The notes beneath the pieces were generated by a model, which saw only the letters and a list, made by a program, of their open reading frames with translations, made no database searches and was not told where the DNA came from. A DNA stretch of 58,508 nucleotides from Escherichia phage KarinMuster_Bas82. Shown piece by piece: positions 3,036 to 54,278 of this stretch (the first letter of the stretch is position 1; each line of letters begins with the position of its first letter). The position numbers were made by a program, and so were the translations under genes. The stretch is taken from the sequence record PQ850612.1; one strand, given 5' to 3'.

Positions 3036-3051
3036 CTAACAGGAAACCGAC

Positions 3052-4773: not shown

Positions 4774-4775
4774 GA

Positions 4776-4934: not shown

Positions 4935-4937
4935 AAA

Positions 4938-5084: not shown

Positions 5085-5392
5085 TTAACTGTCTCCGGTA
5101 CAAACCACATTGACGCAAGATATGCACACCCGGCAATTTTATGTTCGTGTTTAGGTTCGAAACTACCCAGAATCACGCTGATGTGTGCGTGGGCCTGTTT
5201 AAAATCCACACCTTTAACAGCAACCGCGTATTCTTTCAGACCATTGAAAAACCATTTGCTGACCCACTGATTCCACGGGTTAGAATTTTCGAAAAATTCT
5301 TTCGGAATACTACCCATCGCCGGGAGAAATTCAGCAATGTTTTTAGGTCCAAAAGCAATATCCAGTTGTGTAATATTTTCATTCGGTTTCAT
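5081..5392 (-). CDS. hypothetical protein
   Basis: 103-aa ORF, first gene downstream of conserved promoter. Confidence 0.55.
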   Translation of the reverse strand: MKPNENITQLDIAFGPKNIAEFLPAMGSIPKEFFENSNPWNQWVSKWFFNGLKEYAVAVKGVDFKQAHAHISVILGSFEPKHEHKIAGCAYLASMWFVPETVK

Positions 5393-5423
5393 AGTTATTA
5401 CCCTTCGTTCATTTGATGACTAA

Positions 5424-5466
5424 AGCATAATCGCACGTTTGCAATCCGTCAAGAATTATTTTAACA
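5424..5466 (-). promoter_or_regulatory. conserved phage promoter (leftward)
   Basis: minus strand reads TTAAAATAATTCTTGACGGATTGC; -35 TTGACG, 17-bp spacer, -10 TATGCT. Confidence 0.6.
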
Positions 5467-5534
5467 CCGTGCAAAAAAACCATCACTGATATAACATACG
5501 TTAAGAACCGTAAACCGTATGGAGCCTGTAGAAC

Positions 5535-13557: not shown

Positions 13558-13660
13558 CGTCATGTTTATTTTTAACCGACCATTCTCTATCTTATTCTTT
13601 TTATTATCTTTTTATAGATAACATAGAAAACATAGATAAACAGAAGAGTAGTATAAGTAG
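13558..13660. repeat. AT-rich ~100-bp repeat, copy A
   Basis: about 90% identical to 53274-53375; shared core CTCTATCTTATTCTTTTTATTATCTTTTTATAGATAACATAGAAAACATAGATA. Confidence 0.8.
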
Positions 13661-37950: not shown

Positions 37951-38997
37951 TCAGTAACCGTTACCGTTGAGAAAATTCGGGGCCGGAGTAGTCATTACCA
38001 TATAACCGTTAGCGATCAGTTGTTCATCGTTCCAACCTTGCGAGATAAACTGTTCATAAGTAGCACCACCTGCTTTTTCAGTCATTACCTTCACAGGTGC
38101 TGCCGCTGGTGTAGGCGCTGCTACAGGTGCTGCCGCTGGTGTAGGCGCTGCTACAGGTGCTGCCGCTGGTGTAGGCGCTGCTACAGGTGCTGCCGCTGGT
38201 GTAGGCGCTGCTACAGGTGCTGCCGCTGGTGTAGGCGCTGCTACAGGTGCTGCCGCTGGTGTAGGCGCTGCTACAGGTGCTGCCGCTGGTGTAGGCGCTG
38301 CTACAGGTGCTGCCGCTGGTGTAGGCGCTGCTACAGGTGCTGCCGCTGGTGTAGGCGCTGCTACAGGTGCTGCCGCTGGTGTTACGCCGATCGGACGTGC
38401 ACCTTCAGGCATTGCAGGAGCCGCACCGAACACAGAGGCAGGAGCCGGACCGGAAATGATTTCTTCACCTGCATAAAGCAATTGTGCCATTTCCATGTTG
38501 ATATATACGCCAGCCTGATTACCTGTACGACCGTTTGCAACAGATGATCCGCTGATACGGTAGTAATAACCTTTTTTCGCCAGATTTTTATCAATAACTG
38601 GCTGGTACGCTGCGTTATAAACCGGACACGCGTCAATAGCCACGTTGCGTGAGAAACCAATTACCCAGTGACCAGCATAACCAGTTTTACTCGCATGTTT
38701 CGGATCATCACCGTTAATAATTTTCCATGCGAAAGTAGGTTGTTGTGGTTCGCCGTTCACATAGTGTGAGTTCGCCGCTCGCATAATCGCCTGGAATACC
38801 GCACCCAGTTCACCTTGTTCTTCCCACCAGTTCGCCGCTGTTTTAGGAAACGCCAGACCAACCCACCAGTTGTGTTTTTCAGGTGCTAACGGTTTATTTT
38901 CGTGGTCATGAGTGTTGATATCGAAAAAAGAACCGCCAACCAGACGACCAACCGGAGTTACAAAAGATTCTTTCTGTGCCATGTTATTAACCTTCAT
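37951..38997 (-). CDS. DUF2815-like protein with (PAAAPVAAPT)n linker
   Basis: 348 aa; alternative start MAQKESF at 38982; nine perfect decapeptide repeats; C-terminal TYEQFISQGWNDEQL. Confidence 0.55.
   Translation of the reverse strand: MKVNNMAQKESFVTPVGRLVGGSFFDINTHDHENKPLAPEKHNWWVGLAFPKTAANWWEEQGELGAVFQAIMRAANSHYVNGEPQQPTFAWKIINGDDPKHASKTGYAGHWVIGFSRNVAIDACPVYNAAYQPVIDKNLAKKGYYYRISGSSVANGRTGNQAGVYINMEMAQLLYAGEEIISGPAPASVFGAAPAMPEGARPIGVTPAAAPVAAPTPAAAPVAAPTPAAAPVAAPTPAAAPVAAPTPAAAPVAAPTPAAAPVAAPTPAAAPVAAPTPAAAPVAAPTPAAAPVAAPTPAAAPVKVMTEKAGGATYEQFISQGWNDEQLIANGYMVMTTPAPNFLNGNGY
38089..38382 (-). repeat. 30-bp perfect tandem repeat, 9 full copies plus partial ends
   Basis: identical 30-mers TGCCGCTGGTGTAGGCGCTGCTACAGGTGC, in-frame. 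Confidence 0.9.
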
Positions 38998-41083: not shown

Positions 41084-42745
41084 ATGAAAGCTCGTTATTA
41101 TCAGACTGAAGCTGTCAATAACGTATGTCAGGCGTGGTCAAGCGGTGCTGACGACGTGATTCTTGTGCTTCCCACGGGGGCAGGAAAAACGTTCTGTATG
41201 TCTGAACTGGTAAAAACAAGAGACGGTGTAAAAGTCATCCAGGCACACCGTAAAGAACTGGTTAGTCAAATCGCAATGGCTGTTGCTCGCCAGGGATTAC
41301 CACACAGATTTATAGCGCAAAAAGATACTGTTAAGTTTGCAACTAATCAGCAGATGAAAACGCTTGGTTACAGTACCTATTCCCCCGGTGCTGACATCGT
41401 TATTACCAGTTCACAAACGTTAAGAACAAAACAGTACGAACGATGGTACAACGACGTGTCTCTTGTATTCAGCGACGAAGCGCATCACCTGGTGCGTGGC
41501 ACACAGTGGGGAGACTGCCGGGAAAAATTCCCTAACGCTAAAGGTCTGGGTGTTACAGCTACACCGATCCGTGCTGACGGTAAAGGCTTAGGTCGTCATG
41601 CGTCAGGTTACGCAGATCAGATGATCATTGGTCCGTCAATGCGTGAGTTAATCAGTCAACAACATCTGGCTGATTATCGTCTGATTATGGCTGAAACAGA
41701 CCTGGAATTAACTGCAGAAATGATTTCCCATACCACGGGTGATTACAAACCTTCTGCGTTAAAAAAAGCGATGGAAGATTCAAACATTGTTGGTGATACC
41801 GTTAGCACGTGGAAAACGTATGCAGATGGTTTACTCACTGTTGTGTTTACGTGTGATGTGGATTCTGCTGAAGCACTGGCACAAGAATTTCGCGATGCGG
41901 GTATTCCAGCAGAGGCGATCAGCTCACGAAACAGCAATCAGGAACGAGCGGATATCCTGGAACGTTTTGAACGACGTAAAACACTCGTGCTGTGTAACAA
42001 CGATTTATTCGGTGAAGGATACGACTGTCCTGCAATGGAATGTGCTGTAATGGACCGTCCAACAGAATCTTACTCTTTGTTTGTACAACAGATGGGTCGT
42101 CCGTTGCGTTTCAAACCGGGTAAAAAAGCACTGATTATTGATAAAGTCGGTAATGTTCGTCGATTTCTGGCCCGTGGTTTTCCACTTCCCGATCAGCATT
42201 ACAACTGGTCTTTAGACGACCGTGACCGTCGTTCATCAAACAGCAGTGGGAACAGTAACACAACATGTACAAACAAGGGTGATCCTGATAACGGTATTCC
42301 ACCGTGTCTGAAGCCTTATCCGTCTGGTCTTCCGTGCTGTCCGTATTGTGGTCATGTTCCTGAAAAAGTCGAACGCTCAGGCCCGGATCGTGTAGAAGGT
42401 AATTTACGTGAATTGACACCTGAAGAACTGGAAGAATTACGCCGGGCAGTTGTGATAATCGACCGTGATCCTGTTGCGGTAAAAGAACAAATGTTGAACG
42501 CTGGTGCACCCCCTGTTGCCGCTTACAGTGCAATGAAAAACATTCAGGCAATGAACGATGCACAGCGTAAGTTACGCGGCATGATTACCACATGGGCCGG
42601 TATTCAGCGTGACAAAGGTATACCCGTTGATGACGCTTACAAGATGTTTTACAGGGTGTTTGGTGTTGATGTGCTCAGTGCTCAGGGATTACGCACTCAT
42701 GAAGCTAATGAACTCGCTGCAAGGGTTGCAAGTTCATTAATCTGA
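41084..42745 (+). CDS. SF2 DEAD/DEAH-type helicase
   Basis: 553 aa; Walker A LPTGAGKT, Walker B FSDEAHH. Confidence 0.8.
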   Translation: MKARYYQTEAVNNVCQAWSSGADDVILVLPTGAGKTFCMSELVKTRDGVKVIQAHRKELVSQIAMAVARQGLPHRFIAQKDTVKFATNQQMKTLGYSTYSPGADIVITSSQTLRTKQYERWYNDVSLVFSDEAHHLVRGTQWGDCREKFPNAKGLGVTATPIRADGKGLGRHASGYADQMIIGPSMRELISQQHLADYRLIMAETDLELTAEMISHTTGDYKPSALKKAMEDSNIVGDTVSTWKTYADGLLTVVFTCDVDSAEALAQEFRDAGIPAEAISSRNSNQERADILERFERRKTLVLCNNDLFGEGYDCPAMECAVMDRPTESYSLFVQQMGRPLRFKPGKKALIIDKVGNVRRFLARGFPLPDQHYNWSLDDRDRRSSNSSGNSNTTCTNKGDPDNGIPPCLKPYPSGLPCCPYCGHVPEKVERSGPDRVEGNLRELTPEELEELRRAVVIIDRDPVAVKEQMLNAGAPPVAAYSAMKNIQAMNDAQRKLRGMITTWAGIQRDKGIPVDDAYKMFYRVFGVDVLSAQGLRTHEANELAARVASSLI

Positions 42746-43954: not shown

Positions 43955-46309
43955 ATGAAAGGGTTACTGAACCGTAAACAGTGGGTCATGTGGCGACTTG
44001 AGACAGTTGCCGATCGTCCAAAACCAACGAAAGTACCATACAGTCCAGTACACGGTTACAAAGCCAGTACCACTAACCCTAACGACTGGTCTGACTATCA
44101 CACCGCGTTAGGTATGGCGCAAATGTACGGTATGTCTGGTGTTGGTTTTGTATTCACAGAAAACGATCCGTACTTCTTTATTGATGTCGATAACTGTCTG
44201 GTAGATCAGGCAACAGCCACATGGTCACCACTGGCGCATGAATTCGTAAACCGTTTTCCAAATGCGTACACCGAAGTAAGCCAGTCAGGAACAGGTTTGC
44301 ACATCATCTGTGCTTATACCAGCATACCGGAAGGTTTTAACAGTCTGAACGACCAGAAAACCGGGCTGGAAATGTACTGGCGTGATCGTTTCGTCGCGAT
44401 GACGCTCACGGGTAATGGTGATGTTGATATTGATTATACCCAGGGCATTCATGATTCTATTGCCCGGTATGGTCGTATCCGTTCAGACCGTTCCGCACGC
44501 TGGACAACAGCACCCTGTGATGACTGGTCAGGACCGACAGACGACGATGAACTGATTAAAATGGCGTTAAATTCGTCCAGTGCTGCTTCAGTATTTGGCA
44601 ATAAAGCGTCATTTGCGGATCTGTGGAATGCAAACGTTGAACGCCTGTCTGTGTCATATCCTAGTGACCAGGGGAAAGACTACAACGCATCAGCAGCAGA
44701 TGCTGCCCTGTGTTCACACCTTGCGTTCTGGACCGGGAAAGATTGCGAACGTATTGAACGATTGTTTAACCGTTCCGGGCTGGTTCGTGGTAAATGGACA
44801 GATCGTCAGGACTACCGTGAAAACACAATTCTGGGCGCTGTGGAACGTTGTGATACGGTTTATCGTAGTCAACCGACGCTGACACCAGAACTGATGAAAG
44901 CAGTCACACCAGCGCCTACCGTCGTTCCTAATGGTGGAACACCTGCGTATATGAGTGTGAAACCCGGTGAAGGTGCATATGGTTCAAACCACACGGTTAA
45001 CGCATCCACGTTCGTTAATAACTATTATCCGAACAACACATTGATTTTCGTCCAGCAACAGCCGTACCGGTTCAACGGTCGCGTGTGGGAACGTGTGAGT
45101 GAAGATGAACTGAAACATCAGATATCTATGGCAATGCTCGCCAGCGAACCAAAAGCTGACGTAATTAACGGTACGTACAAGGTTTTGTCGTATTTATTCA
45201 CACGCGCTGATCGTGAGCTTGGAACATGGCCAGGTGTTGATGTGTCACACTACATTGTATGTCAGAACGGGATACTGGATGTACACACGGGTAAATGTGA
45301 TGCACATAACCCGGATTTCTTTACGACCAGTATTTTACCGTATAGCTACGATCCGTTTGCCCGTGCGCCAGCATTTGAACAGTTTTTAAATACAACTCTG
45401 GAAGGTGATCAGGAACGTATTGCACTGTTGCAGGAATGGCTGGGTTACATGCTTGTCAACTCATATGACTATCAGAAAGCGATGCTGTTGATTGGTGCAC
45501 CACGTTCCGGTAAAGGTACGATTGGTCGCATCATTCAGGCACTGGTAGGTGATGAAGCGTATGCAGGGGTCACACTGGAGGGTTTAGCTAGTGATGCGGT
45601 ACTTGAAACTGTGTTGGATAAATCTGTGCTGTTTATTGGTGATGCTCACAGTGTGTCCGGGCCTGATCGCAACCGAATTCTGGACCGTTTCAAATCTATT
45701 ACAGGTTGTGATGCGATTCCGGTTAATCGTAAATATAAAGGTGCATGGAACGGTCGTTTACCGGGACGTATGACACTGGCTGCTAACAACATTCCGGCAT
45801 TTGCTGATGATTCAGGTGCAATGGCTAACCGTTTGCTGATCCTGCCATTCAACATTTCGTTCCTGGGTCGTGAAGATACCACTCTGGAAGCACGACTGAT
45901 GAAAGAACTACCGGGGATCTGTAACTGGGCGATTGAAGGTTTACAACGGTTACGTGCTAACGGACGGTTTACTGAACCAAAAGCAAGTCTGGAAGAACGT
46001 CAGGAAATTATGGATCAACAATCACCACTTAGAAGTTTTATCAGAGATTGTTGCGAATTGGTATCTGATGGTGAGGTGCACACTGAAGAACTCTATGGTC
46101 GTTATCGTCTCTGGAAAACACAGGAAGGTGGTCCAGCAATGACTAAAACTGCATTTAGTCGGGCATTTAAATCCACCCTTCGTGGTAAAGTGAAAAAAGA
46201 CGTCGTTAATATAAATAACGTTCGACTAAACGGTTTCAGGGGTATTCGTCTTCTCCCTTTTCAGTCAACAGCTAATGTAGTGCCTTTCCCACCTGCGAGT
46301 AACGGTTAG
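43955..46309 (+). CDS. DNA primase (prim-pol N-domain plus P4-type ATPase domain)
   Basis: 784 aa; FFIDVDNC and Walker A GAPRSGKGT. Confidence 0.75.
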   Translation: MKGLLNRKQWVMWRLETVADRPKPTKVPYSPVHGYKASTTNPNDWSDYHTALGMAQMYGMSGVGFVFTENDPYFFIDVDNCLVDQATATWSPLAHEFVNRFPNAYTEVSQSGTGLHIICAYTSIPEGFNSLNDQKTGLEMYWRDRFVAMTLTGNGDVDIDYTQGIHDSIARYGRIRSDRSARWTTAPCDDWSGPTDDDELIKMALNSSSAASVFGNKASFADLWNANVERLSVSYPSDQGKDYNASAADAALCSHLAFWTGKDCERIERLFNRSGLVRGKWTDRQDYRENTILGAVERCDTVYRSQPTLTPELMKAVTPAPTVVPNGGTPAYMSVKPGEGAYGSNHTVNASTFVNNYYPNNTLIFVQQQPYRFNGRVWERVSEDELKHQISMAMLASEPKADVINGTYKVLSYLFTRADRELGTWPGVDVSHYIVCQNGILDVHTGKCDAHNPDFFTTSILPYSYDPFARAPAFEQFLNTTLEGDQERIALLQEWLGYMLVNSYDYQKAMLLIGAPRSGKGTIGRIIQALVGDEAYAGVTLEGLASDAVLETVLDKSVLFIGDAHSVSGPDRNRILDRFKSITGCDAIPVNRKYKGAWNGRLPGRMTLAANNIPAFADDSGAMANRLLILPFNISFLGREDTTLEARLMKELPGICNWAIEGLQRLRANGRFTEPKASLEERQEIMDQQSPLRSFIRDCCELVSDGEVHTEELYGRYRLWKTQEGGPAMTKTAFSRAFKSTLRGKVKKDVVNINNVRLNGFRGIRLLPFQSTANVVPFPPASNG

Positions 46310-46328
46310 TCATTGCACAAGGATGTGT

Positions 46329-46368
46329 AAAATAATTCTTGACGAATTACAGAGGTGTGCGCTATAGT
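46329..46368 (+). promoter_or_regulatory. conserved phage promoter (rightward)
   Basis: AAAATAATTCTTGACGAATTAC; 18-bp spacer; -10 TATAGT. Confidence 0.6.
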
Positions 46369-46399
46369 CTGTACATCAAGTGAACAAGGAGTGATTGTT

Positions 46400-46612
46400 A
46401 TGAAACCACACTACCGATTAATGAGACTTTCACAGTGTCCTAATGGAACACGGTTTTATTTTTATCGTCTGAAGCAACTATTACCTTTCACGTTAATTGC
46501 TAACAGCTTCAAGAAATACGAAAGTATTTATCACGAGGGTCACGATTTTAATATTACCGCGAGAAAATACAGAACGTCTATTCATAAACTTGTGTGGGCT
46601 AAGGTGAACTAA
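46400..46612 (+). CDS. hypothetical protein
   Basis: start at MKPHYRL with SD AAGGAG. Confidence 0.45.
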   Translation: MKPHYRLMRLSQCPNGTRFYFYRLKQLLPFTLIANSFKKYESIYHEGHDFNITARKYRTSIHKLVWAKVN

Positions 46613-46614
46613 TA

Positions 46615-46854
46615 ATGGGTGGTCGTGGATCATGTCGTCGAACTCGTTCATTACGCTGCAGTAAGTGTTATGAGCGAAACCTACGTGATTATTTATTAGG
46701 GTTTGGTACACGCAACTGGGAAAACGTTGAAGTTACTGGTGAAAATGGAAACACTTACACCTGCCGTTGTGAATCCTGTGGTCACACTTATCAAACAACA
46801 TCAGCGGCTGCACGTCGCGAATGGAAATGGAAGAAAAACCATGTTGACAACTAG
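46615..46854 (+). CDS. small Cys-pair protein
   Basis: 79 aa; CSKC ... CRCESC. Confidence 0.45.
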   Translation: MGGRGSCRRTRSLRCSKCYERNLRDYLLGFGTRNWENVEVTGENGNTYTCRCESCGHTYQTTSAAARREWKWKKNHVDN

Positions 46855-47098
46855 TATTTTCATACTTGTATTTTGGATAATCATCGTTATACGTATAATT
46901 ATTTGTGCTGTCATACAAAGAAAAATGATTGATTTTTATTATTCTGATAAAAGTGGTTGGGACACACATCAACAGAGTATGTTTGATGCTTACCCACAAT
47001 TAGATACTTTCAAAATGATTTTTAAATTCTGGGTATGGCCTATGTCAAAATTCTATCCTGAATACAGGAAAGGTAAAAACCATGAAAAACATATTTGA
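46841..47098 (+). CDS. membrane protein
   Basis: start at MLTTSIF; hydrophobic N-terminus. Confidence 0.4.
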   Translation: MLTTSIFILVFWIIIVIRIIICAVIQRKMIDFYYSDKSGWDTHQQSMFDAYPQLDTFKMIFKFWVWPMSKFYPEYRKGKNHEKHI

Positions 47099-47279
47099 CC
47101 GTTTAATTACTGTTATCGTATTTCTTGTATCCGTAACGCTCGCGTCTTGTATTGTCGGACTAATGACCCGTGGTAATCATGCGGAAACACCGTGGTGGTT
47201 TCTGGCAGGTATTGGATTATTAGCGGCTGCGGCATCAATTGGTGCTTGCATGTGGGGAGTGAAAAACGATCATGACTGA
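47082..47279 (+). CDS. small membrane protein
   Basis: 65 aa, two hydrophobic segments. Confidence 0.45.
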   Translation: MKNIFDRLITVIVFLVSVTLASCIVGLMTRGNHAETPWWFLAGIGLLAAAASIGACMWGVKNDHD

Positions 47280-47487
47280 ATTCGGTGCTGTAATCAAAAA
47301 AGAAGACCGTTATGCACATATTGATACCCGGATTACCTGGGTTGATATCAGTGAAGCTACTCTGTTCAGTTCAACTTACATGGCTGGTGTTGCACTTAAA
47401 TCACTTCGCGATCAGGGTTTCAATTGCAGAAAAGTAACAATTGCTCCTGTTAAAATCACGCGGATCGTAGAGGAAACAGAAGGATGA
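47272..47487 (+). CDS. hypothetical protein
   Basis: 71-aa ORF. Confidence 0.4.
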   Translation: MTEFGAVIKKEDRYAHIDTRITWVDISEATLFSSTYMAGVALKSLRDQGFNCRKVTIAPVKITRIVEETEG

Positions 47488-47511
47488 ATATTGCTGGTAG
47501 GAGTATTGATT

Positions 47512-47709
47512 ATGCAAGTAGGTAATTGTTATTTATATCCTAAAACAGATCTGTTTGAAAAATGTTGGGTGGTAATAACCTATTCAAATCCGTGTCAGGG
47601 AGTTATCATGTGGGATGATGGTAAATGTCAGACTTCAATGATAAATGATCAGGACATGCGAGGCTGTCAATTAGTTGGATGTAATATGAAGATGAGATCA
47701 ACACAATGA
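47512..47709 (+). CDS. hypothetical protein
   Basis: start at MQVGNCY with SD AGGAG. Confidence 0.4.
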   Translation: MQVGNCYLYPKTDLFEKCWVVITYSNPCQGVIMWDDGKCQTSMINDQDMRGCQLVGCNMKMRSTQ

Positions 47710-48101
47710 TAATCGTCGTCACAGGTGGTCGTGACTTCAACGACAGAGTAGCAGTATTTTCCGCGTTAGGACTACTTCACAAACAATTCCCCATTACCGA
47801 ACTAATTGAAGGTGGTGCGTCAGGTGTTGATAACCTGTGTAAGCAATGGGCGCAGTTACACAGTATTCCTGTGCGTAGTTGCCCGGCAGCGTGGGACGAT
47901 CTGACTGTACCTGGTGCGGTTGTAAAACAGGGCAAGCACGGGCCTTATAACGCTGTTGCAGGTCATCAACGTAATCAGGCGATGTTAGAGGGTGAGCCAC
48001 GCCCTACATATGGTGTTGTGTTCCCCGGTGGGCGTGGTACTGCTGATATGCATCGTCGCATGTTGAAAGCTGGTTTAACTGTGTGGGTTCCATATCCTTA
48101 A
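47706..48101 (+). CDS. SLOG-type Rossmann protein (DprA/Smf- or DUF2493-like)
   Basis: 131 aa; VVTGGRDF and EGGASGVD motifs. Confidence 0.45.
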   Translation: MIIVVTGGRDFNDRVAVFSALGLLHKQFPITELIEGGASGVDNLCKQWAQLHSIPVRSCPAAWDDLTVPGAVVKQGKHGPYNAVAGHQRNQAMLEGEPRPTYGVVFPGGRGTADMHRRMLKAGLTVWVPYP

Positions 48102-48137
48102 AATAATTCTTGACAGATTACCAACCATCCCCGATAA
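48101..48137 (+). promoter_or_regulatory. conserved phage promoter (rightward)
   Basis: AAAATAATTCTTGACAGATTAC; 17-bp spacer; -10 GATAAT. Confidence 0.65.
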
Positions 48138-48172
48138 TTAGCCTCAGTTAACACACATGAGGCTAAACACAA

Positions 48173-48403
48173 ATGGCTAATAAAATTCATAAAGTCGATG
48201 ACACTTTTGTCATTTCAGATGATGGCGGTTGGTTGCCTGGCTGTTATGACAGTTTTGAAACAGCAGAAAAAGCACATGCTGTTAAACATTTGGAAAACTG
48301 GAATTTCCTTCAACGTCTTCAGAATGAAGCAAACACCCGTAATGGTGGCGTAGAAGGTGTGATCACTCTTAATGATATTGAAAACAAATCTGCACGGAGC
48401 TAA
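48173..48403 (+). CDS. hypothetical protein
   Basis: 76-aa ORF behind promoter and 5' hairpin. Confidence 0.5.
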   Translation: MANKIHKVDDTFVISDDGGWLPGCYDSFETAEKAHAVKHLENWNFLQRLQNEANTRNGGVEGVITLNDIENKSARS

Positions 48404-48408
48404 CAACC

Positions 48409-49176
48409 ATGGCTAACATTAATTCCCTTCGCAAGCTGTCTGATACCGATAAAACCAATGTAAAACGTGGTAATGCGTATCGTATTGATCCGCATATCAT
48501 CAAGATTCGTCCAGGGCATAACCCACGCGGTGTGTTTACCGACAACTACTGGGAAACTGAAGCAGCACTGGCACACATTGAAAACTTTCGTCAGGCTTAT
48601 ACCAACGGTGATTTCGTTCCACCGATCGTGGTACAGGTTGTTGACGGTGTTCCGTATGTTCAGGATGGTGAGCATCGTTTACGTGGTGTATTGGCAGCTA
48701 TTGAAGCCGGGACGCCGATTCTGACAGTAGATGTTGTTGAATCGTCCGGTGACGAACTACAACAGACCCTGACACTGTTAAAAGGTAATGAAGGTAAACC
48801 GTGGTCCCCTGTTGAACGTGCTGTTATTTACGGTCGTTTCCGTTCATATGGCATGAGTGTTGAGCAGATTGCTACACAAGTCGGTAAAACCGTTCAGCAC
48901 GTTTACGAACAACTGAATATTCTTGATATGCCGCTGGAACTTAAACGTCGTATTCAGAACGGTGAAATCAGCGCATCAGCAGCCATACGCCAGTTCAAAG
49001 CAGGTGATAAAGAACCAGTAGTCACGCGTCGTCCGCCTGCTAAACTGGTACGATCTGCAGTGGAAGCAATTCGTGGTGAATGGTCTGTAACCCGTTCGGA
49101 AGGTGGTAAAGTCCTGGTTGAACTTACCGCTGAACAGTTCGAAGCGTTAAAAGCACTGAAGGAGCACCAGTTATGA
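48409..49176 (+). CDS. ParB-like nuclease-domain protein
   Basis: 255 aa; VVQVVDGVPYVQDGEHRLRGV. Confidence 0.55.
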   Translation: MANINSLRKLSDTDKTNVKRGNAYRIDPHIIKIRPGHNPRGVFTDNYWETEAALAHIENFRQAYTNGDFVPPIVVQVVDGVPYVQDGEHRLRGVLAAIEAGTPILTVDVVESSGDELQQTLTLLKGNEGKPWSPVERAVIYGRFRSYGMSVEQIATQVGKTVQHVYEQLNILDMPLELKRRIQNGEISASAAIRQFKAGDKEPVVTRRPPAKLVRSAVEAIRGEWSVTRSEGGKVLVELTAEQFEALKALKEHQL

Positions 49177-49343
49177 AAACTATATCAGACAACTTAACAT
49201 CAATTTACGGTACATTGACCTGTCGTTCTAAATTAAAACCGTTGACAAAAGAAGAAGAATATCAGTGTAAATTCAATAATAGTTTCCCCAGCGTTAATGA
49301 AAATCGTTGGATTGCCAAACTAACCGGGAGTAAAAAGAAATGA
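49173..49343 (+). CDS. small hypothetical protein
   Basis: 56-aa ORF with ATGA overlaps on both sides. Confidence 0.3.
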   Translation: MKTISDNLTSIYGTLTCRSKLKPLTKEEEYQCKFNNSFPSVNENRWIAKLTGSKKK

Positions 49344-49564
49344 CTATCCGACTGATGAATCCAACCGTTGCCCGTAATATTAAACCGGGCGACAAGATTG
49401 AAGTATTTAATGAATGGTACTGGGTACGCTATATCAATTACCACGGGGCAACACTTACCCTTCGCTTACAACCGGAAGATGAACCGCTATCACCATTTTG
49501 CGAAAACGACCGCGTTGTGGTGACAGTACCAGAAGATTTAACGATTGATGTCGAGGTGCGTTAA
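49340..49564 (+). CDS. hypothetical protein
   Basis: 74-aa ORF. Confidence 0.45.
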   Translation: MTIRLMNPTVARNIKPGDKIEVFNEWYWVRYINYHGATLTLRLQPEDEPLSPFCENDRVVVTVPEDLTIDVEVR

Positions 49565-49954
49565 ATGACTGTATATGAAATGGAAGGTTTTCTTCGTGGT
49601 AAATGTATTCCGGGCGACCTGAAAGTTAACGAAACAAACGCTGAATATCTGGTGCGTAAGTTCGGTGAACTTGAAAATAAATGTGCGGCGCTGGTTGCGG
49701 AGAATGCGGCATTTAAGGACATAAACGCATGGTGTAAAACAGATGCGTTCAAAAACATGTATCGTGAGTTCAAAACAGCAGAAGCAGTTGGCTGTTGCGA
49801 CATTGACTGCATGCATGACGCAATGATGGTCGCAATTATGCACGCGCCTAAAGCACCAGCAACCGACGCTTTCCTGGCTGAAGTACGGGCCAGCGAACTT
49901 GATAGTTTAGCTGGTGTGGCTGAAACAATGTTGGTCAAATTCTCCAATCAGTAG
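49565..49954 (+). CDS. hypothetical protein
   Basis: 129-aa ORF. Confidence 0.5.
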   Translation: MTVYEMEGFLRGKCIPGDLKVNETNAEYLVRKFGELENKCAALVAENAAFKDINAWCKTDAFKNMYREFKTAEAVGCCDIDCMHDAMMVAIMHAPKAPATDAFLAEVRASELDSLAGVAETMLVKFSNQ

Positions 49955-49970
49955 TGCTCATCTGATATGC

Positions 49971-50309
49971 ATGATGTTGTGGGATGGAAGATGGTTCTCC
50001 AGCAGGCCAATAATCGCGCCGTCAAACTTCGTAAAAGGTGTGTTCGTGTATGAGTATCCGACTAACAGGTTCCCTCGTAACGGTTTGAAGTGGTCCGCAC
50101 GAGATCTGGCGTTATTAAAAATTAATGCGGGGAAGATCAGTGCGGACGAAATAGCGTACTACCTTCGCCGGGACGTTGAAGCGGTGCACATTAAAGCGTC
50201 ACGTCTCGGTATATCACTGGTAACCAATAAATGTAAACGTGGTCATGCGCGAGTTTACCAAAAAGGTAGATGGCGCTGTCCTGAGTGTAGAAAATTAAAA
50301 GGGTATTAA
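49971..50309 (+). CDS. hypothetical protein (start uncertain)
   Basis: in-frame ATG at 49971 without SD; alternative GTG about 50046 preceded by AAGGTG. Confidence 0.35.
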   Translation: MMLWDGRWFSSRPIIAPSNFVKGVFVYEYPTNRFPRNGLKWSARDLALLKINAGKISADEIAYYLRRDVEAVHIKASRLGISLVTNKCKRGHARVYQKGRWRCPECRKLKGY

Positions 50310-50311
50310 AT

Positions 50312-50557
50312 ATGAGCACTAAACTTCAACTTGGTTTTTCACCACTATCAAAAACTATCATGCTGGCAAAAATGCGCGATATTGAAGGTGGGCGTATGCG
50401 CGTTGGTAATGATCCCGGTCGTGATGTAACCAATGAAGCAGCACAGTTAGTATGGCAACTGGTTATTGCTGAAGGTGGTGAGATCGCGTGGGAACTGGAT
50501 GATGGTTCTCGCATGGTGTTGAAGGCAGAAAAACAAACAGAGGTACAACCATCATGA
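50312..50557 (+). CDS. hypothetical protein
   Basis: 81-aa ORF. Confidence 0.45.
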   Translation: MSTKLQLGFSPLSKTIMLAKMRDIEGGRMRVGNDPGRDVTNEAAQLVWQLVIAEGGEIAWELDDGSRMVLKAEKQTEVQPS

Positions 50558-51123
50558 CACCTGAACAATTCGCAACAGCAGCACACGGTGATCAACTTCG
50601 TAAGTACACCAACGACCCATATGTTAACCACTGCCGGAACGTTGCTGAACTGGTTAAACGCTATGGTGGTACGCCGGATATGGTTACCGCTGCCTGGCTG
50701 CATGATGTCGTTGAAGATACGCCAGTGACAGTGGGTGATGTGTGTTCGCAGTTCGGTGAAACTGTGGCACGTTATGTTGATCAGCTTACTGATGTGAGTC
50801 GTCCACACCACGGCAACCGTGTTAAGCGTAAAGCACGGGACATCGACCATTTATCACGGGCTGAACCTGTGGTGAAAACTATAAAACTGTGTGATCTGCT
50901 GGATAACACATCTTCAATTGTCCGACACGATCCGAAGTTTGCTGTAACGTACCTGGCCGAAAAACAACTCATGCTTGCTCACCTGTCAGATGCAAGTAAT
51001 CAGGAGTTATATGCGCTTGTTGAGCGTGAATTGTTTAAAGCCAAATACAAACTAACGAACGTCCAGTTGACAGCGTTTGACAAACACTACGACGCACTGG
51101 TTAAAGCGATGGGGGATCTGTGA
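50554..51123 (+). CDS. HD-domain hydrolase, SpoT/RelA hydrolase-like (small alarmone hydrolase candidate)
   Basis: 189 aa; AAHGDQLRKYTNDPYVNHCRNVA and AAWLHDVVEDT. Confidence 0.7.
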   Translation: MTPEQFATAAHGDQLRKYTNDPYVNHCRNVAELVKRYGGTPDMVTAAWLHDVVEDTPVTVGDVCSQFGETVARYVDQLTDVSRPHHGNRVKRKARDIDHLSRAEPVVKTIKLCDLLDNTSSIVRHDPKFAVTYLAEKQLMLAHLSDASNQELYALVERELFKAKYKLTNVQLTAFDKHYDALVKAMGDL

Positions 51124-51125
51124 TT

Positions 51126-51296
51126 ATGAAAGAAATAGAACAACTGGTTAAACGTTTACGTGCTGCTGGTCATCAACTTACTGTTGAAAATAACTGGATA
51201 GTGGTTAATCCACCATGTTCTTTATCTGATACGCTTTTAATTCAGAAATTGAATAAAGGTGAAAAACTGGCTAAGTATATTAAGGAAAACCCGTAA
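51126..51296 (+). CDS. small hypothetical protein
   Basis: 56-aa ORF with overlapping start. Confidence 0.35.
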   Translation: MKEIEQLVKRLRAAGHQLTVENNWIVVNPPCSLSDTLLIQKLNKGEKLAKYIKENP

Positions 51297-51436
51297 TGAA
51301 ACTAAAACTTCCAGGATACTGGTTTTCCGTAAGCTGGAACAGTTACAGTAAGTGGGGTTATTTCAAACTGTGGTATGACGGGCCGTACCGCGCATTCTGG
51401 ATCGGTCGTCTTTGTTTCGAATGGTGGTGGCGATGA
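51296..51436 (+). CDS. small Trp-rich protein
   Basis: 46-aa ORF. Confidence 0.3.
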   Translation: MKLKLPGYWFSVSWNSYSKWGYFKLWYDGPYRAFWIGRLCFEWWWR

Positions 51437-51654
51437 TTGCAGATAACTTACTGTGTAAACTACGTGCGGACCTGATTAATAAAAAGTTTTGTCGTGATAT
51501 AAACAAACCACTTGTATTTGTAAAAGTGCTCAACGTCTATAGAGCAGGTCGTGGTTTTAAGGTTATGTTCAGATACGGTGATGACGGTCCTGTCGTATAT
51601 TGTGGTTACACCAATTTTTTGAAACGTTACCCGGAGGAACTAACACATGAATAA
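51433..51654 (+). CDS. hypothetical protein
   Basis: start at MIADNLL (track ORF begins 51412). Confidence 0.4.
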   Translation: MIADNLLCKLRADLINKKFCRDINKPLVFVKVLNVYRAGRGFKVMFRYGDDGPVVYCGYTNFLKRYPEELTHE

Positions 51655-51856
51655 AGCATCGCCTGTAGAAATACGTAAGTGTCTTGAAATGGCAAACAGT
51701 CTTGCACATGCCGGGATTAGATTTGTCCCTGTACCAGTAACCAGTGATGATGAATTTAATTCGCTGGTTACTCATTCGTACGGGATGCTAAACAAAATAG
51801 CAGACGATTGTGATACAACTAACCGCCAGTTCGAAAGTCTGGCTAAACATGAATAG
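51647..51856 (+). CDS. hypothetical protein
   Basis: 69-aa ORF. Confidence 0.4.
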   Translation: MNKASPVEIRKCLEMANSLAHAGIRFVPVPVTSDDEFNSLVTHSYGMLNKIADDCDTTNRQFESLAKHE

Positions 51857-51906
51857 TTAATCGTCAGTGCGCTCTATGTGGCGCACGTTTTCTATGAGGT
51901 GTACCG

Positions 51907-52245
51907 ATGAGTTTGTTTCAATGTGAAAACTGTGGATGTGTTGAAAATACCGCTCTGTCTTCTCAGGGGTTTAACGGTTTCTTTGAAAAGATGTACGACT
52001 GGTTATATGCACCGGGAAGGAAAGGTAAACGATTATGTTCAACGTGTGGACCTGTTAAATACAAAGATGGAAAAGATACCGAATACGGTAAATGGCATAA
52101 CGTTTTTCCACGGCGGTATTTACCATTGGGTAAGTTTAAAACGAATCGTCAGGGTAATCTGGAAAATGTTGAAACGGGTGAAACAGATTATCAACCTTAC
52201 ATACTTAAACAGGATGGCGACTGGAAAAACGAACCCTTCTGTTAA
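51907..52245 (+). CDS. zinc-ribbon-like protein
   Basis: 112 aa; CENCGC ... CSTCG. Confidence 0.5.
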   Translation: MSLFQCENCGCVENTALSSQGFNGFFEKMYDWLYAPGRKGKRLCSTCGPVKYKDGKDTEYGKWHNVFPRRYLPLGKFKTNRQGNLENVETGETDYQPYILKQDGDWKNEPFC

Positions 52246-52251
52246 CAAAAA

Positions 52252-52278
52252 GCGGGGTAATCATCCCCGCTATCTTTA
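52252..52278. terminator. bidirectional terminator
   Basis: GCGGGG-taatcat-CCCCGC with T-rich flanks. Confidence 0.6.
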
Positions 52279-53031
52279 TTGACCCATCATATCTTTATAC
52301 ATCATCAAAACAACATCATCCGGCATATTGTCTACATCACAATGTGGGTTGTGTGATAACGCATACAGTCTGATTTTCTCCTTCAAATCGCTGACATCGA
52401 CTACAGGTGCTTCCACTCGTGCTACAGGTGCTTCCACTCGTGCTACAGGTGGTTCCACTCGTGCTACAGGTGGTTCACAAACCATCACGTTAAACGGTGT
52501 ACCGGTGCCTTCGTATTTTTCAAGCAAATCGACCATTACGTTTACACATTCCGGGATCCATCCCCGGCGCAAACCATTCTGAATCCAACTGTCAGTAATT
52601 GTGTGTTCGTTTAAATTCCTGCGTAGCACATATCTTGCACATTCAAAATTACCGCACATCGCCTCAAACCGTGTCCACACGTCGTGACCGTGAACAGCTT
52701 CCAGGATCTGTGAATCAACGTATCTGACACGTTGCCAGTAGTTATTAGCAAAACGCCTGTGCGGTAATTTCTGACGGAGTTCGGTAACCGGTATTGTGTG
52801 TTTAAGAACAATGTTTTCGTCAGAATATTGTACTGGCAAGGGTGACAGTGTGAAGTCAGTAATCTCTTCAAGAATAATACTGATCGTTTCATATTTAGGA
52901 TGAAACCTACCGCTTAACCATTGGTTGTAACGACCAACAGTTACCTTAACACCTCGACGATTAAGGTATTCAACAGCATTTTGTACCCCGCCTTTTAAAT
53001 CTATCAATTCGTCTAAAAGGTTCTTTTTCAT
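52276..53031 (-). CDS. hypothetical protein with (E)PPVARV repeats
   Basis: start at MKKNLLDEL with SD AAGGGTG; four 21-bp in-frame repeats. Confidence 0.5.
   Translation of the reverse strand: MKKNLLDELIDLKGGVQNAVEYLNRRGVKVTVGRYNQWLSGRFHPKYETISIILEEITDFTLSPLPVQYSDENIVLKHTIPVTELRQKLPHRRFANNYWQRVRYVDSQILEAVHGHDVWTRFEAMCGNFECARYVLRRNLNEHTITDSWIQNGLRRGWIPECVNVMVDLLEKYEGTGTPFNVMVCEPPVARVEPPVARVEAPVARVEAPVVDVSDLKEKIRLYALSHNPHCDVDNMPDDVVLMMYKDMMGQ
52401..52500 (-). repeat. 21-bp tandem repeat x4 plus partial
   Basis: CTACAGGTGCTTCCACTCGTG x2 then CTACAGGTGGTTCCACTCGTG x2. Confidence 0.8.
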
Positions 53032-53069
53032 TATCACACCCTTCTTGTTTGACCACGGGTAAATCATAA

Positions 53070-53260
53070 CGCGCGTTAGCAGCTAGTGCAAGACGTGCTT
53101 TATATGTTAGTGTATTTACACCTAACGCACGTTGTGCTTTAGCAGCTAGTGCAAGATGCACGTTGTGTATTAGCTGTTAGTGCACGTTGTGTATCTATGT
53201 TGGTACAGCTAATGCACGTTGTGAATTATGTAGTGCATATAGTGCATTAAAGTTATACTT
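53070..53260. repeat. iteron-like array
   Basis: GCACGTTGTG x4 at 24-32 bp spacing, TTAGCAGCTAGTGCAAGA x2, TATTAGCTGT recurring. Confidence 0.75.
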
Positions 53261-53273
53261 AACATAGATTTCG

Positions 53274-53375
53274 TCATGTTTATTTTTTAACCAACCTCTC
53301 TCTATCTTATTCTTTTTATTATCTTTTTATAGATAACATAGAAAACATAGATACAAAGAAGAAGTAGTATAGAAA
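53274..53375. repeat. AT-rich ~100-bp repeat, copy B
   Basis: near-identical to 13558-13660. Confidence 0.8.
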
Positions 53376-53642
53376 GATAGAGATAGTGCATATAGTGTAT
53401 TAGCTGTAAATAGAGCTAAAATAAAAGTCTGGGAGATACCTATTGTAATCTATGTTTTTATGCAAGTCTTTGAATTGATTGTGATTATGGGCTACGTATT
53501 TATGTATGTAGTCGAAAATTAGTGCATGTTGTGCACTAACTGTAAAATTAATACTAACATTGTATTAGCTGTAAAACAGGGCGTGTGGACAACCCGTGGG
53601 TATCTGTGGGAAACTAATTTAAAATTTATGGGAGACAAATTT

Positions 53643-54278
53643 ATGAAAATTTCAGACCGGGCTAAAAGAGCTGCTCTGGAGTTGTCGCCGGAACAGCTTA
53701 AGTTCGCCAACCTGTGGTTAGATCGTGTCAATAATGGCTTCAGCAATACGCGATGCGTTTTAGAAGCTTATCCGGGTCACACGTCTGATGCAGCGGCTGC
53801 AACGACCGCACACCGCCTCCTGTCGAATACGAAGGTGTTGAACTATCTGGACGCGATGGGAAGTCATGCGCTTGAGTCTGTCGGGGAATCGTTAACGAGT
53901 CGTGTTGAGTGGTGGAAACGAGCGGCAAGCACGGCTGAAGAATTACTGGAACCGTATTGTCAGCGTGTCATCGTCCCTGGTGAAGACGATACAGAAGCGA
54001 AACACCTGTGGGTGAACAGTACCGACGATATCCCCAGTCATCTGCAACAGTACGTAGTTTGCTACAAACGTTACATGCTGGGTGGATACATTCTGGTGAC
54101 ACGTGAACTGTTCGACCCGAAAACTCGTGCAAAAGCGTCTGAACAACTGGATAAGATCACCGGGAACAGTATCGACCGTGTGGAATTGTCTGGCGTGGTT
54201 GGAAACGTGGTTCAGAGTGTTCCTGAAGGTGCAACCATCGACGACATCGCGCAACTTTATCAGAAGGCACTCAAATAG
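53643..54278 (+). CDS. terS: terminase small subunit
   Basis: start at MKISDRAK (SD GGAGA); LSPEQLKFANLWLDRVNNGFSNTRCVLEAY...AHRLLSNTKVLNYLDAM matches terminase small-subunit N-domain pattern. Confidence 0.65.
   Translation: MKISDRAKRAALELSPEQLKFANLWLDRVNNGFSNTRCVLEAYPGHTSDAAAATTAHRLLSNTKVLNYLDAMGSHALESVGESLTSRVEWWKRAASTAEELLEPYCQRVIVPGEDDTEAKHLWVNSTDDIPSHLQQYVVCYKRYMLGGYILVTRELFDPKTRAKASEQLDKITGNSIDRVELSGVVGNVVQSVPEGATIDDIAQLYQKALK

Follow-up and report, generated by a model that had tools for sequence, protein, structure and literature searches.

Predicted alarmone hydrolase, SLOG and ParB-like genes in a probable accessory arm of Escherichia phage KarinMuster_Bas82

Do an HD-domain hydrolase, a SLOG Rossmannoid protein and a ParB-like protein encoded within 6 kb of one another form a joint system, or do they merely share an address? 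The question arises from the window analysed here, the whole 58,508-nt record PQ850612.1 of Escherichia phage KarinMuster_Bas82, in which an earlier note had described positions 46329–52245 (+ strand) as an operon combining the three. Judged by its sequence, the source phage is a Nonanavirus/Sashavirus (9NA-like) virulent siphovirus of E. coli/Salmonella, with 95–98% DNA identity to PDP46, 536P12, AVIO78A and Sasha over shared parts. Phages of the 9NA type are virulent, carrying no genes for lysogeny (PMC4153490). Upstream lies a rightward replication cluster with an SF2 helicase (41084–42745), an exonuclease and an NrS-1/D5-type primase (43955–46309). We count 20 plus-strand genes at 46400–52245, in agreement with the roughly 20 small rightward genes claimed before; most overlap or stand no more than 5 nt apart, and 18 of them match a PHROG or Pfam family. 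We read 46329–52245 as a variable accessory-gene arm that continues the replication cluster and carries independently exchangeable cassettes in two promoter units rather than one machine, and give this reading a probability of about 0.6.

The two rightward promoters proposed earlier are indeed the two best sigma-70 matches in 45500–54000. P1 (46328–46368, + strand; box TAAAATAATTCTTGACGAATTAC) combines TTGACG (46339–46344), an 18-nt spacer and TATAGT (46363–46368), with a sigma-70 match of 10/12 over 46339–46368. P2 (48099–48138, + strand; box TAAAATAATTCTTGACAGATTAC) combines TTGACA (48110–48115), a 17-nt spacer and GATAAT (48133–48138), with a match of 11/12 over 48110–48138. A generic sigma-70 scan of 45500–54000 was not above chance (10 sites versus 19.1 expected). 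Other evidence supports P1 and P2. They sit in the two larger non-coding gaps (46310–46399 and 48102–48172) at the head of the two units, and they have in common a 23-nt box, TAAAATAATTCTTGACRRATTAC, whose 20-nt core is present in 17 genomic copies where 0.02 would be expected. True members of the box family show a TAnnnT hexamer 17–18 nt on, followed by a ribosome-binding site and ATG; about 15 such near-identical promoters, P1 and P2 included, are found genome-wide. The P1 box after the primase gene is kept in all ten relatives compared. The P2 box ahead of the ParB unit is present in nine of the ten and also in the distant relative L022; an exact search returned a single box in AVIO78A/L004, though its record annotates a promoter at the P2 position.

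A third gap (51857–51906, 50 nt) holds only a hairpin, at 51867–51886 on the plus strand, which is terminator-like by consensus match only and might act as a partial stop before the last gene. At 52251–52271, a bidirectional intrinsic terminator, a hairpin with a 7-bp G+C-rich stem, separates the converging plus-strand unit from a minus-strand gene (52276–53067), and the Sasha and AVIO78A records annotate terminators at the matching place. Host sigma-70 RNA polymerase would transcribe the region as two units, with P1 driving g1 to g7, the SLOG gene last, and P2 driving g8, the ParB gene and on through g20 until transcription stops at this terminator. The "early" timing of the region is plausible, its only grounds being promoter sequence and position after the primase gene; it is weakened by a box of the P1/P2 family ahead of the head-gene operon at 13733, which includes the major head protein.

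In the P1 unit (all genes on the plus strand), g1 (46400–46612, 70 aa, phrog_9291, no assigned function) is kept in nearly all relatives, while g2 (46615–46854, 79 aa, Cys-rich and zinc-ribbon-like) and g3 (46841–47098, 85 aa, hydrophobic N-terminus, phrog_25285) are variable. They are followed by g4 (47082–47279, 65 aa, two-transmembrane, annotated 'lipoprotein', phrog_22517), g5 (47272–47487, 71 aa, phrog_26050, no assigned function) and the orphan g6 (47491–47709, 72 aa, starting at TTG 47491 or ATG 47512). Among the relatives, g6 is common to 536P12 only, and most carry a Dcm-type cytosine methyltransferase in its slot. The variable slots stop exactly at a promoter box, with the gene before the box terminating inside it; at P2, it is the SLOG gene whose stop codon lies there.

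The P2 unit, likewise on the plus strand, begins with g8 (48173–48403, 76 aa, no family), shared only with PDP46 and SP069 among the relatives. Beyond the ParB gene come g10 (49173–49343, 56 aa, DUF2737), g11 (49340–49564, 74 aa, phrog_8705) and g12 (49565–49954, 129 aa, phrog_614), a segment that is also found in lambdoid/Stx prophages. The start of g13 (49914–50309, at most 131 aa) is uncertain; it has a C-terminal Cys-rich motif and a weak D5-like regulator PHROG match, and relatives match only its C-terminal 60–74%. g14 (50312–50557, 81 aa, DUF7446) is found in none of the ten relatives. Past the HD gene lie g16 (51120–51296, 58 aa, phrog_5649), g17 (51296–51436, 46 aa, phrog_34921), g18 (51412–51654, about 80 aa with an uncertain start, phrog_36357), g19 (51647–51856, 69 aa, DUF1382) and g20 (51907–52245, 112 aa, Cys-rich, phrog_11861).

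Comparison of presence and absence across the ten relatives reveals that HD, SLOG and ParB each come and go independently. 9NA lacks SLOG and SP069 has a truncated copy, only a 13% remnant of ParB is left in 536P12, and HD is not present in Sasha, 9NA or the Klebsiella relatives. The slots alongside are filled by Dcm, HNH or NADAR genes or are empty. The operon claimed for the three genes therefore stands as co-location, but not as a single unit, given the two promoters and this independent variation. SAH, SLOG and ParB-like annotations are already present in close relatives. Since all three proteins belong to known phage families and are independently gained and lost, we regard them as an ordinary, useful list of candidates rather than a new system.

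The HD gene (g15, 50554–51123, + strand) encodes a 189-aa HD_4 small alarmone hydrolase (SAH) of the Mesh1/SpoT-hydrolase type. Its (p)ppGpp-hydrolase signature, noticed earlier from the letters, is confirmed as H11-x4-R16 (four intervening residues, where five had been written), P22-Y23-x2-H26 and LHDVVEDT at residues 49–56. It matches Pfam HD_4 (PF13328, E=3.9e-15) and, in the PDB, Lmo0812 (4e-15), MESH1 (1.5e-13) and Rel/SpoT hydrolase domains; Pseudomonas-type SAHs match far worse (E ~1e-5, versus ~1e-13 to 1e-15 for Mesh1/Lmo0812). In this PDB comparison, every Mesh1/SpoT catalytic or metal residue is aligned, and g15 holds the complete Mesh1 set, in its own numbering R16, H26, H50, D51, E54, D55, D114 and N118; in 28 family members all of these are invariant save D55, which is conserved in at least 90%. 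Like PbcSpo of Salmonella phage PVP-SE1 and PaSpo of phage SSU5, it is an enterobacterial phage product made up of one HD_4 domain of about 170–190 aa. Phage records with a homologue number 345, and the subfamily is spread broadly among virulent and jumbo phages of many hosts.

From its sequence, g15 is predicted to be an active SAH-type enzyme, a 3'-pyrophosphohydrolase that depends on Mn2+, which would clear (p)ppGpp/(pp)pApp and possibly also the 3'-pyrophosphate that toxSAS toxins place on tRNA. Neither RelA/stringent signalling nor toxSAS (CapRel/FaRel-type) defences could then shut down the infected cell; stand-alone phage SAHs neutralise each of the five toxSAS classes they were tested against (PMC7229694). 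It is possible, if somewhat less than an even prospect, that the enzyme instead serves general host takeover and not anti-defence, stripping RelA/SpoT-made (p)ppGpp so that transcription, translation and DNA replication keep running in starving infected cells. The catalytic set identical to those of SpoT and Mesh1, the presence of the subfamily in phages whose many hosts do not necessarily have toxSAS, and the link between alarmone accumulation and phage infection (discussed in PMC7229694) all fit such a role. However, the gene is dispensable in close relatives with similar hosts (Sasha, 9NA), a patchiness typical of counter-defence genes, and so far phage SAHs have been assayed against toxSAS alone (PMC7229694). 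Both roles could apply at once.

The SLOG gene (g7, 47706–48101, + strand) encodes a 131-aa YAcAr/DUF2493 Rossmannoid protein. Profile HMMs bear out the SLOG and ParB names given in the earlier note, in this case with a full-length match to YAcAr SLOG (PF10686, E=1.7e-18) above the Pfam cut-off, and the GGASGVD motif lies at residues 36–42. As in other YAcAr proteins (YspA/cpYpsA-related, PF10686/DUF2493), glycine-rich loops follow strands 1 and 2 and a PGGxGT loop is present; GGR, GxxxGxD, AGxxRN and PGGxGT(ADM) are invariant in the g7 family. It shares the stand-alone form of 115–135 aa with the YAcAr proteins of hundreds of phages, and has a β-hairpin insert of about 18 residues (64–82) seen in only part of the family. 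The AF2 model (pLDDT 96.4) finds its best folds among LOG, ShosA and DprA. Unlike LOG, g7 lacks the catalytic Glu (PGGxGTxxE), having Met instead, and the SAM and winged-helix domains that partner this fold in DprA are absent from it. We know of no YAcAr family member with a demonstrated function.

Genomic context was taken from annotated phage records and eight homologue contigs. The family counts 733 phage records, often beside a polymerase or helicase annotation or labelled 'DprA-like', and the YAcAr gene lies within a replication module in six of the eight unrelated contigs (a small sample, with L013 and L018 mutually related), directly upstream of an SF2 helicase in three. g7 is a YAcAr SLOG protein whose nucleotide-binding loops are all intact; it would be a replication/recombination accessory beside helicase and primase, acting either as a DprA-like ssDNA binder or as a sensor of nucleotides or ADP-ribose derivatives. 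We consider it unlikely that the main job of g7 is to act enzymatically on, or as a sponge for, immune signals derived from ADP-ribose (Thoeris-type cADPR isomers and others) rather than to assist replication. Viral SLOG domains of the YpsA clade frequently occur as fusions with Macro/NADAR and are predicted to process ADP-ribose signals (PMC9503650, PMC7824862), and the abutting of NADAR and SLOG genes in two relatives, AVIO78A and L022, fits these predictions (PMC9503650); type-II LOG tops the Foldseek list, and the LOG-like PGGxGT with invariant R89 and near-invariant D114 could serve N-glycosidic chemistry. Yet Met replaces the LOG catalytic Glu, DprA/ShosA is indicated both by the motifs GxD and RN and by the highest TM-scores (0.66–0.69), the commonest neighbours are helicases, primases and methyltransferases, and in ICP1 the DUF2493 domain is fused to HelB, an SF1B helicase (bioRxiv 10.1101/671271).

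Could HD, SLOG (with NADAR where present) and ParB nevertheless form a single nucleotide-centred counter-defence system, in which host immune nucleotides (alarmones, ADP-ribose-derived signals) are sensed, destroyed and coupled to a DNA-bound regulator? We find this improbable. In L022, the HD_4, YAcAr and NADAR genes overlap and are followed by a P2-type box, Nmad5 and ParB, and in AVIO78A the NADAR gene overlaps the SLOG stop codon. These overlaps argue that the genes are functionally coupled, at least in part, and that the SLOG role centres on ADP-ribose. Further points for the joint system are the published predictions above and the presence of all three genes within one 6-kb arm in six related phages; the case for linkage from the L022 layout is weak. 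Against it, each gene is independently lost in viable relatives, and in this phage HD is 2.5 kb and seven genes from SLOG, in the other promoter unit. No HD_4 or ParB gene turned up in any of the eight unrelated YAcAr neighbourhoods, SLOG and ParB were both absent around two unrelated SAH genes, and the search against PADLOC and known anti-defence families gave no match.

The ParB-like gene (g9, 48409–49176, + strand) encodes a 255-aa orphan protein with a ParB/Srx-type N-terminal domain (GxNxR, DGEHRLR, N127), a ParB HTH and a short C-terminal domain. It matches HTH_ParB (PF17762, E=1.3e-6), phrog_1033 'ParB-like partition protein' (E=1.2e-59) and, in sequence and fold, ParB/Noc/KorB, with no PF02195 match at E≤0.01. 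In this architecture (with DGxHRxR as the shared motif), in lacking a ParA and in lying on a mobile element beside replication and modification genes, g9 resembles KorB (RK2), Noc, BisD, HerB/YfjB (F plasmid leading region) and 5mYOX-associated phage ParBs, all of the non-canonical or orphan ParB-CTPase fold. It differs from this set in its length of only 255 aa, in the first GERRxR Arg, which is His, and in the loss of the Glu of the ENLQR hydrolysis motif. It may therefore bind or turn over NTPs differently from canonical ParB, or not at all; in contrast to the 5mYOX ParBs, g9 retains the HTH. Orphan proteins with the ParB fold occur widely among phages and bind a range of NTPs (PMC12704722). 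One phage ParB serves to activate a DNA T-dioxygenase (PMC13229309), and HerB, a ParB-like plasmid protein, reprograms transcription in the host (PMC13370423). g9 is predicted to be an HTH-containing, NTP-binding switch of the orphan ParB-fold kind, which would load on DNA as a clamp-like regulator or a DNA-modifying-enzyme cofactor (KorB/HerB/5mYOX-ParB style) and not serve partition.

A plasmid-like partition/centromere system for a carrier or pseudolysogenic state is hardly credible despite the ParB-like architecture and the repeat-rich non-coding DNA 4 kb downstream (53068–53525), as no ParA-type Walker box occurs in any genome ORF of at least 80 aa, the genome has no repeated palindrome, the g9 N-terminus lacks the (L/F/I)G(K/R)G(L/F/I) ParA-binding motif (PMC12704722), its TIGR00180 score is 37.3 against a cut-off of 58.45, 536P12 has lost ParB, phages of the 9NA type are virulent, and the repeats, lying just upstream of the small-terminase gene, fit a pac or regulatory site better than a centromere.

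Two distant g9 homologues adjoin thymidylate synthase, dCTP deaminase, exonuclease/primase or Nmad5. By gene neighbourhood, the SLOG and ParB contexts point mainly to replication, nucleotide metabolism and DNA modification, not second-messenger signalling. The suggestion that these genes are host-takeover or anti-defence candidates is reasonable for HD (PMC7229694), but less so for the other two.

The promoter boxes invite one further comparison. In T4-type phages, conserved early-promoter cassettes (PeSLs) flank variable genes. Here, similarly, near-identical promoters that extend well past the -35/-10 hexamers bracket small variable gene cassettes, although the stem-loop partner of PeSLs was not identified in this 9NA-like phage, and a recombination role of the boxes is only an idea.

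The 58.5-kb window comprises all or nearly all of the genome of a virulent siphovirus of the 9NA-like group (Nonanavirus/Sashavirus). [quoted passage not shown] The region at 46329-52245 lies directly 3' of the rightward replication genes, which encode an SF2 helicase (41084-42745), an exonuclease of the Rv2179c type and a primase of the NrS-1/D5 type (43955-46309). Together with the surrounding 22 kb, it is 95-98% identical over the shared parts to Escherichia phages PDP46, AVIO78A and PJ16, and likewise to Sashavirus 536P12, BDX09P1 and the Salmonella phages Sasha, Sergei and Solent, while identity to 9NA and SP069 is 83-87%. Because the region is mosaic, no record of the phage collection covers it in full. 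The earlier note had counted about 20 small genes, and 20 plus-strand genes (g1-g20) indeed fill 46400-52245 with few-base gaps or overlaps. Three larger non-coding gaps interrupt them, two of which carry the -35/-10 sites of the promoters P1 and P2. A terminator-like hairpin (51867-51886) sits in the gap at 51857-51906, ahead of the last gene, and a 7-bp G+C-rich terminator hairpin (52251-52271, both strands) separates the region from the converging gene at 52276-53067; the Sasha and AVIO78A records annotate a terminator at the position equivalent to the latter. Neither Rfam nor tRNA scans over the full window returned a match, and a PADLOC search with ten of the proteins was likewise negative.

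Comparison of the 20 region proteins with ten relatives in a tblastn matrix reveals that the SLOG protein (g7), the ParB-like protein (g9) and the HD protein (g15) do not travel together. The SLOG gene is found in all ten relatives but 9NA and is truncated in SP069; the ParB gene is found in all but 536P12; and the HD gene is confined to PDP46, 536P12, AVIO78A, PJ16, BDX09P1 (75%) and SP069. The three genes are thus not co-inherited as parts of one system, each having been lost independently, and what had been proposed as an operon combining them is a mosaic neighbourhood. Other positions vary in the same matrix. Gene g14 is unique to the window, and g6, a 72-aa orphan ORF (47491-47709) common only to the window and 536P12, takes the place of a Dcm-type methyltransferase (4157-4837 in the sequence L001; 3688-4389 in L002). 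The slot after SLOG holds an HNH gene in Sasha, a NADAR gene in AVIO78A and nothing in the window. Genes g12-g14 (49576-50535) share 85-92% DNA identity with lambdoid and Stx2-converting prophages and with P22-like phages. The match indicates that this group of virulent phages has recently exchanged DNA with temperate ones. Independent gene histories and the prophage-shared g12-g14 form the pattern of an accessory region, and we read the region as probably an accessory arm built from exchangeable cassettes. We note that the PDP46 protein labelled “cytosine specific methyltransferase” has no Pfam match at E<=0.01.

The two strong rightward promoters of the earlier note stand up well. P1 (TTGACG-18-TATAGT, 46339-46368) and P2 (TTGACA-17-GATAAT, 48110-48138) are the two best sigma-70-type matches in the 8.5 kb scanned. 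The total number of sites in the generic sigma-70 scan is not above chance, and the promoter claim therefore rests instead on a conserved 23-nt box common to P1 and P2. Its 20-nt core, AATAATTCTTGACRRATTAC, occurs in 17 copies in the window at <=3 mismatches (0.02 expected), and the exact decamer AATTCTTGAC lies within 13 copies of the box (0.26 expected). About 15 copies have a TAnnnT hexamer 17-18 nt beyond the TTGAC(R), with an RBS and start codon 25-45 nt past this hexamer. The promoter family so defined shares a 20-28-nt box, (T)TAAAATAATTCTTGACRRATTAC, that reaches far past the -35 hexamer. Its members lie at 1800+, 5441-, 7664-, 9448-, 13420-, 13733+, 21636-, 23583-, 40963-, 41026-, 46331+, 48102+, 54795-, 56648- and 58421-, with weaker copies at 21669- and 35998+. 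The best -10 hexamers of the family are those of P1 (TATAGT), P2 (GATAAT) and 58421- (TAGAAT), so that “strong” is a fair description.

The box is kept at two orthologous places in the relatives, after the primase and ahead of the ParB unit. An exact search recovers both copies in 9 of the 10 relatives, including the Klebsiella phages, in which ParB identity falls to 68%; in AVIO78A it gives the first box only, and that record annotates a promoter ahead of the ParB gene. Both copies are also kept in L022, a more distant metagenomic relative. This conservation argues that P1 and P2 are real promoter features. The assignment of the region as early is less direct. Boxes of the family serve the leftward replication operon (40963-), an operon containing the major head protein (13733+), many small reverse-strand cassettes and both units of the region. 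Since the family spans the genome, the head-gene operon included, the promoter sequence alone does not mark a unit as early. The region has sigma-70-type promoters with near-consensus -10 hexamers, but the same box also precedes head genes, and early timing of its transcription is plausible.

The box, or its immediate edge, is also where the preceding genes have their stop codons and variable cassettes end, and it might for this reason double as a recombination joint or regulator site. The idea that it is a ParB/KorB-type operator was rejected except as a remote one, given that the box is not palindromic, persists in 536P12, which has lost ParB, and is absent from L021, a sequence that carries a related ParB.

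The HD protein g15 (189 aa, 50554-51123, plus strand) matches Pfam HD_4 (PF13328) with 56.4 bits against a curated cut-off of 27.2 (E=3.9e-15), and residues 6-122 give a local match to TIGR00691. Its PDB matches are Lmo0812, human and fly MESH1 and Rel/SpoT hydrolase domains (E=4e-15 to 1e-8). Mesh1 R24, H35, H61, D62, E65, D66, D122 and N126 align to g15 R16, H26, H50, D51, E54, D55, D114 and N118; these eight Mesh1/Rel residues are known as Mn2+ ligands or catalytic residues. Across 28 homologues (44-88% identity), seven of the eight are invariant in the g15 family and D55 is at least 90% conserved. The (p)ppGpp-hydrolase signature reported in the earlier note is thus borne out, and all the sequence motifs that it quoted are present. 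HD_4 and HD are the only domain matches of this single-domain protein; a Pfam search found no synthetase domain, and the label “(p)ppGpp synthetase” that the PDP46 record gives to its homologue is wrong. The subfamily counts 345 phage records; a metagenome protein set yields 1892 matches, most of which are 165-190 aa long and stand alone.

From its sequence, we conclude that g15 is most probably an active small alarmone hydrolase (SAH), with a substrate range and biological target that we infer. Stand-alone SAHs of the Salmonella phages PVP-SE1 and SSU5 neutralise every one of the five toxSAS toxin classes tested, and the authors proposed that such enzymes let phages evade abortive infection based on alarmones (PMC7229694). 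Routine work on CapRel uses the SSU5 enzyme to tame it (PMC9712102). A role of g15 in counter-defence or host takeover, of a kind already demonstrated in other phages, is credible.

The SLOG protein g7 (47706-48101, plus strand) is a full-length PF10686 (YAcAr/DUF2493) member, with 66.6 bits against a curated cut-off of 28.2, and the SLOG assignment is thereby confirmed by HMM. There are 803 homologues, and every one among the matches listed carries PF10686. In a 40-homologue alignment the motifs GGR (7-9), GxxxGxD (36-42), AGxxRN (85-90) and PGGxGT (107-112) are invariant, with a near-invariant ADM (113-115) after PGGxGT. The AF2 model (pLDDT 96.4) finds its nearest solved folds by Foldseek in type-II LOG, ShosA, the MoCo carrier protein and DprA (prob 1.0, TM 0.6-0.69), and predicts a SLOG-type Rossmannoid fold with glycine-rich nucleotide loops. 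NCBIfam and PDB sequence searches with g7 gave no match. The GxD and RN motifs resemble those of DprA. The catalytic Glu of LOG is a Met in g7.

Gene context is the most informative evidence on g7. In eight diverse homologues on long contigs, the gene belongs to a replication module in six; it lies directly upstream of an SF2 helicase in three contigs (two of them related to each other), near a D5/DUF5906 primase in four and near a DNA methyltransferase in three. Neighbours of the family in phage records are annotated as polymerase or helicase, and the actinophage copies are labelled “DprA-like”. The ICP1 protein HelB joins an SF1B helicase to a DUF2493 domain (bioRxiv 10.1101/671271). A purely DNA-centred role is opposed by bona fide, Pfam-supported NADAR genes that overlap the SLOG stop codon in AVIO78A (L004 4545-4967, Pfam E=1.4e-22) and in the distant relative L022 (3849-4265); these fit published computational work that predicts an activity of viral YpsA-clade SLOG domains towards ADP-ribose derivatives (PMC9503650, PMC7824862). 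The NADAR gene also scores, below the cut-off, against the NCBIfam model “NADAR family anti-phage protein”. The AVIO78A record labels its NADAR gene “ParB-like protein”.

In the ParB-like protein g9 (48409-49176, plus strand), Pfam reports the ParB HTH only, with PF02195 unreported at E<=0.01, and TIGR00180 scores 37.3 bits, below its cut-off of 58.45. Residues 69-192 align to Spo0J (phmmer, E=3e-7), and the top 29 Foldseek matches of the AF2 model (pLDDT 82) are all Noc, ParB, KorB or Spo0J. The protein is thus predicted to combine a ParB/Srx N-terminal fold with a ParB HTH, within the ParB-CTPase-fold superfamily. Its close family is narrow (29 proteins). Conservation extends to GxNxR, DGEHRLR (family DG(E)HRxR) and N127, an Asn that corresponds to the N of ENLQR; in GERRxR, His stands in place of the first Arg, and the Glu for hydrolysis is missing.

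A canonical partition ParB (ParABS) was considered and dropped. Besides the missed profile thresholds, no ParA-type Walker box (KGGxGK[ST]) occurs in any ORF of at least 80 aa in the genome, the g9 sequence contains no ParA-binding motif (L/F/I)G(K/R)G(L/F/I), and no perfect 12-16-bp palindrome is present more than once in the genome as a parS-like repeat would be; partition is therefore unlikely. Distant homologues lie beside thymidylate synthase, dCTP deaminase and methyltransferase genes in L021, beside thymidylate synthase, exonuclease and primase genes in the N4-like phage EcP1, and beside Nmad5 in L022, and a Dcm-type methyltransferase is found two genes upstream of ParB in most 9NA-like relatives. 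Mobile elements frequently encode orphan ParB-fold proteins, whose ligands are CTP, ATP or GTP (PMC12704722). One phage ParB serves as the activator of a DNA thymine dioxygenase (PMC13229309), the ParB-like HerB of the F-plasmid leading region reprograms host transcription (PMC13370423), and KorB is a CTP-dependent clamp and repressor (PMC11790492). By analogy with this literature, we read g9 as a putative DNA-bound switch of the broad orphan ParB/HerB/KorB kind. In all relatives this gene comes first in the P2 unit; in 536P12 it is reduced to 13% of its length, and g9 is therefore dispensable. At about 4850-5046 of 536P12 (L003), nearly all of ParB is deleted while the P2 box and downstream genes are kept, making it a natural ParB-minus variant.

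The earlier note's proposal of a hydrolase and a nucleotide-binding Rossmann protein as candidate factors of host takeover or anti-defence is credible for the SAH. The SLOG and ParB proteins belong to widespread phage families whose contexts point mainly to DNA replication and modification. One counter-example, a minority case for functional linkage, is L022 (Logan SRR33471211 contig, 16 kb), where overlapping HD_4, YAcAr and NADAR genes are followed by a P2-type box, Nmad5 and a ParB-like gene (2937-5828); its HD_4 protein is 44% identical to g15. We consider it rather improbable that the arm 3' of the primase in 9NA-like phages is a dedicated counter-defence and DNA-modification hot-spot. 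In such a hot-spot, recombination at the conserved 23-nt promoter boxes would bring together and reshuffle a recurrent set (SAH, YAcAr SLOG, NADAR, Nmad5 or Dcm, ParB-like clamp). SLOG and NADAR would then handle signals or adducts derived from ADP-ribose, and ParB would guide DNA modification or transcription or set its timing.

The exchangeable-cassette arm leaves current concepts unchanged, and close relatives already carry these annotations; its value lies in its use as a tractable test bed and not in a discovery. All three proteins represent, in compact and clean form, phage families with partly known roles: g15 is directly testable against toxSAS/CapRel immunity in E. coli, the YAcAr SLOG family of g7 occurs in more than 700 sequenced phages with roles that are so far computational predictions, and g9, encoded by a virulent phage, is an orphan ParB-fold protein of small size. 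Natural single-gene variants (536P12 without ParB, 9NA without SLOG, Sasha without SAH) and an E. coli host therefore make this phage group a convenient genetic system.

Several repeats were observed elsewhere in the genome. The non-coding segment 53068-53525 is repeat-dense, with four to five copies of TGCACGTTGTG, three of TAGTGCATATAGTG and inverted copies, and a small-terminase-like gene (53526-54278, phrog_51) lies directly downstream. Because the repeats adjoin this gene, a pac or regulatory site is likelier than a centromere, which we set aside, and the segment may be such a pac site or a regulatory array. An AT-rich element of 79 nt is present in two copies of 94% identity (13569-13647 and 53284-53362). 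Each copy lies in an intergenic control region together with 9-nt ATAGAAAAC-type repeats and the motif GTATTAGCTGT, of which the genome has 7 copies (about 1 expected); these regions might serve as origin, pac or regulator-binding sites. A perfect 30-nt tandem repeat (9.7 copies, 100% identity) spans 38093-38382 inside the minus-strand gene 37951-38997. A 21-nt repeat related to it (3.6 copies, 52401-52476) is the source of PPVARVE repeats encoded by the gene 52276-53067, and a longer repeat is annotated at the equivalent place in Sasha.
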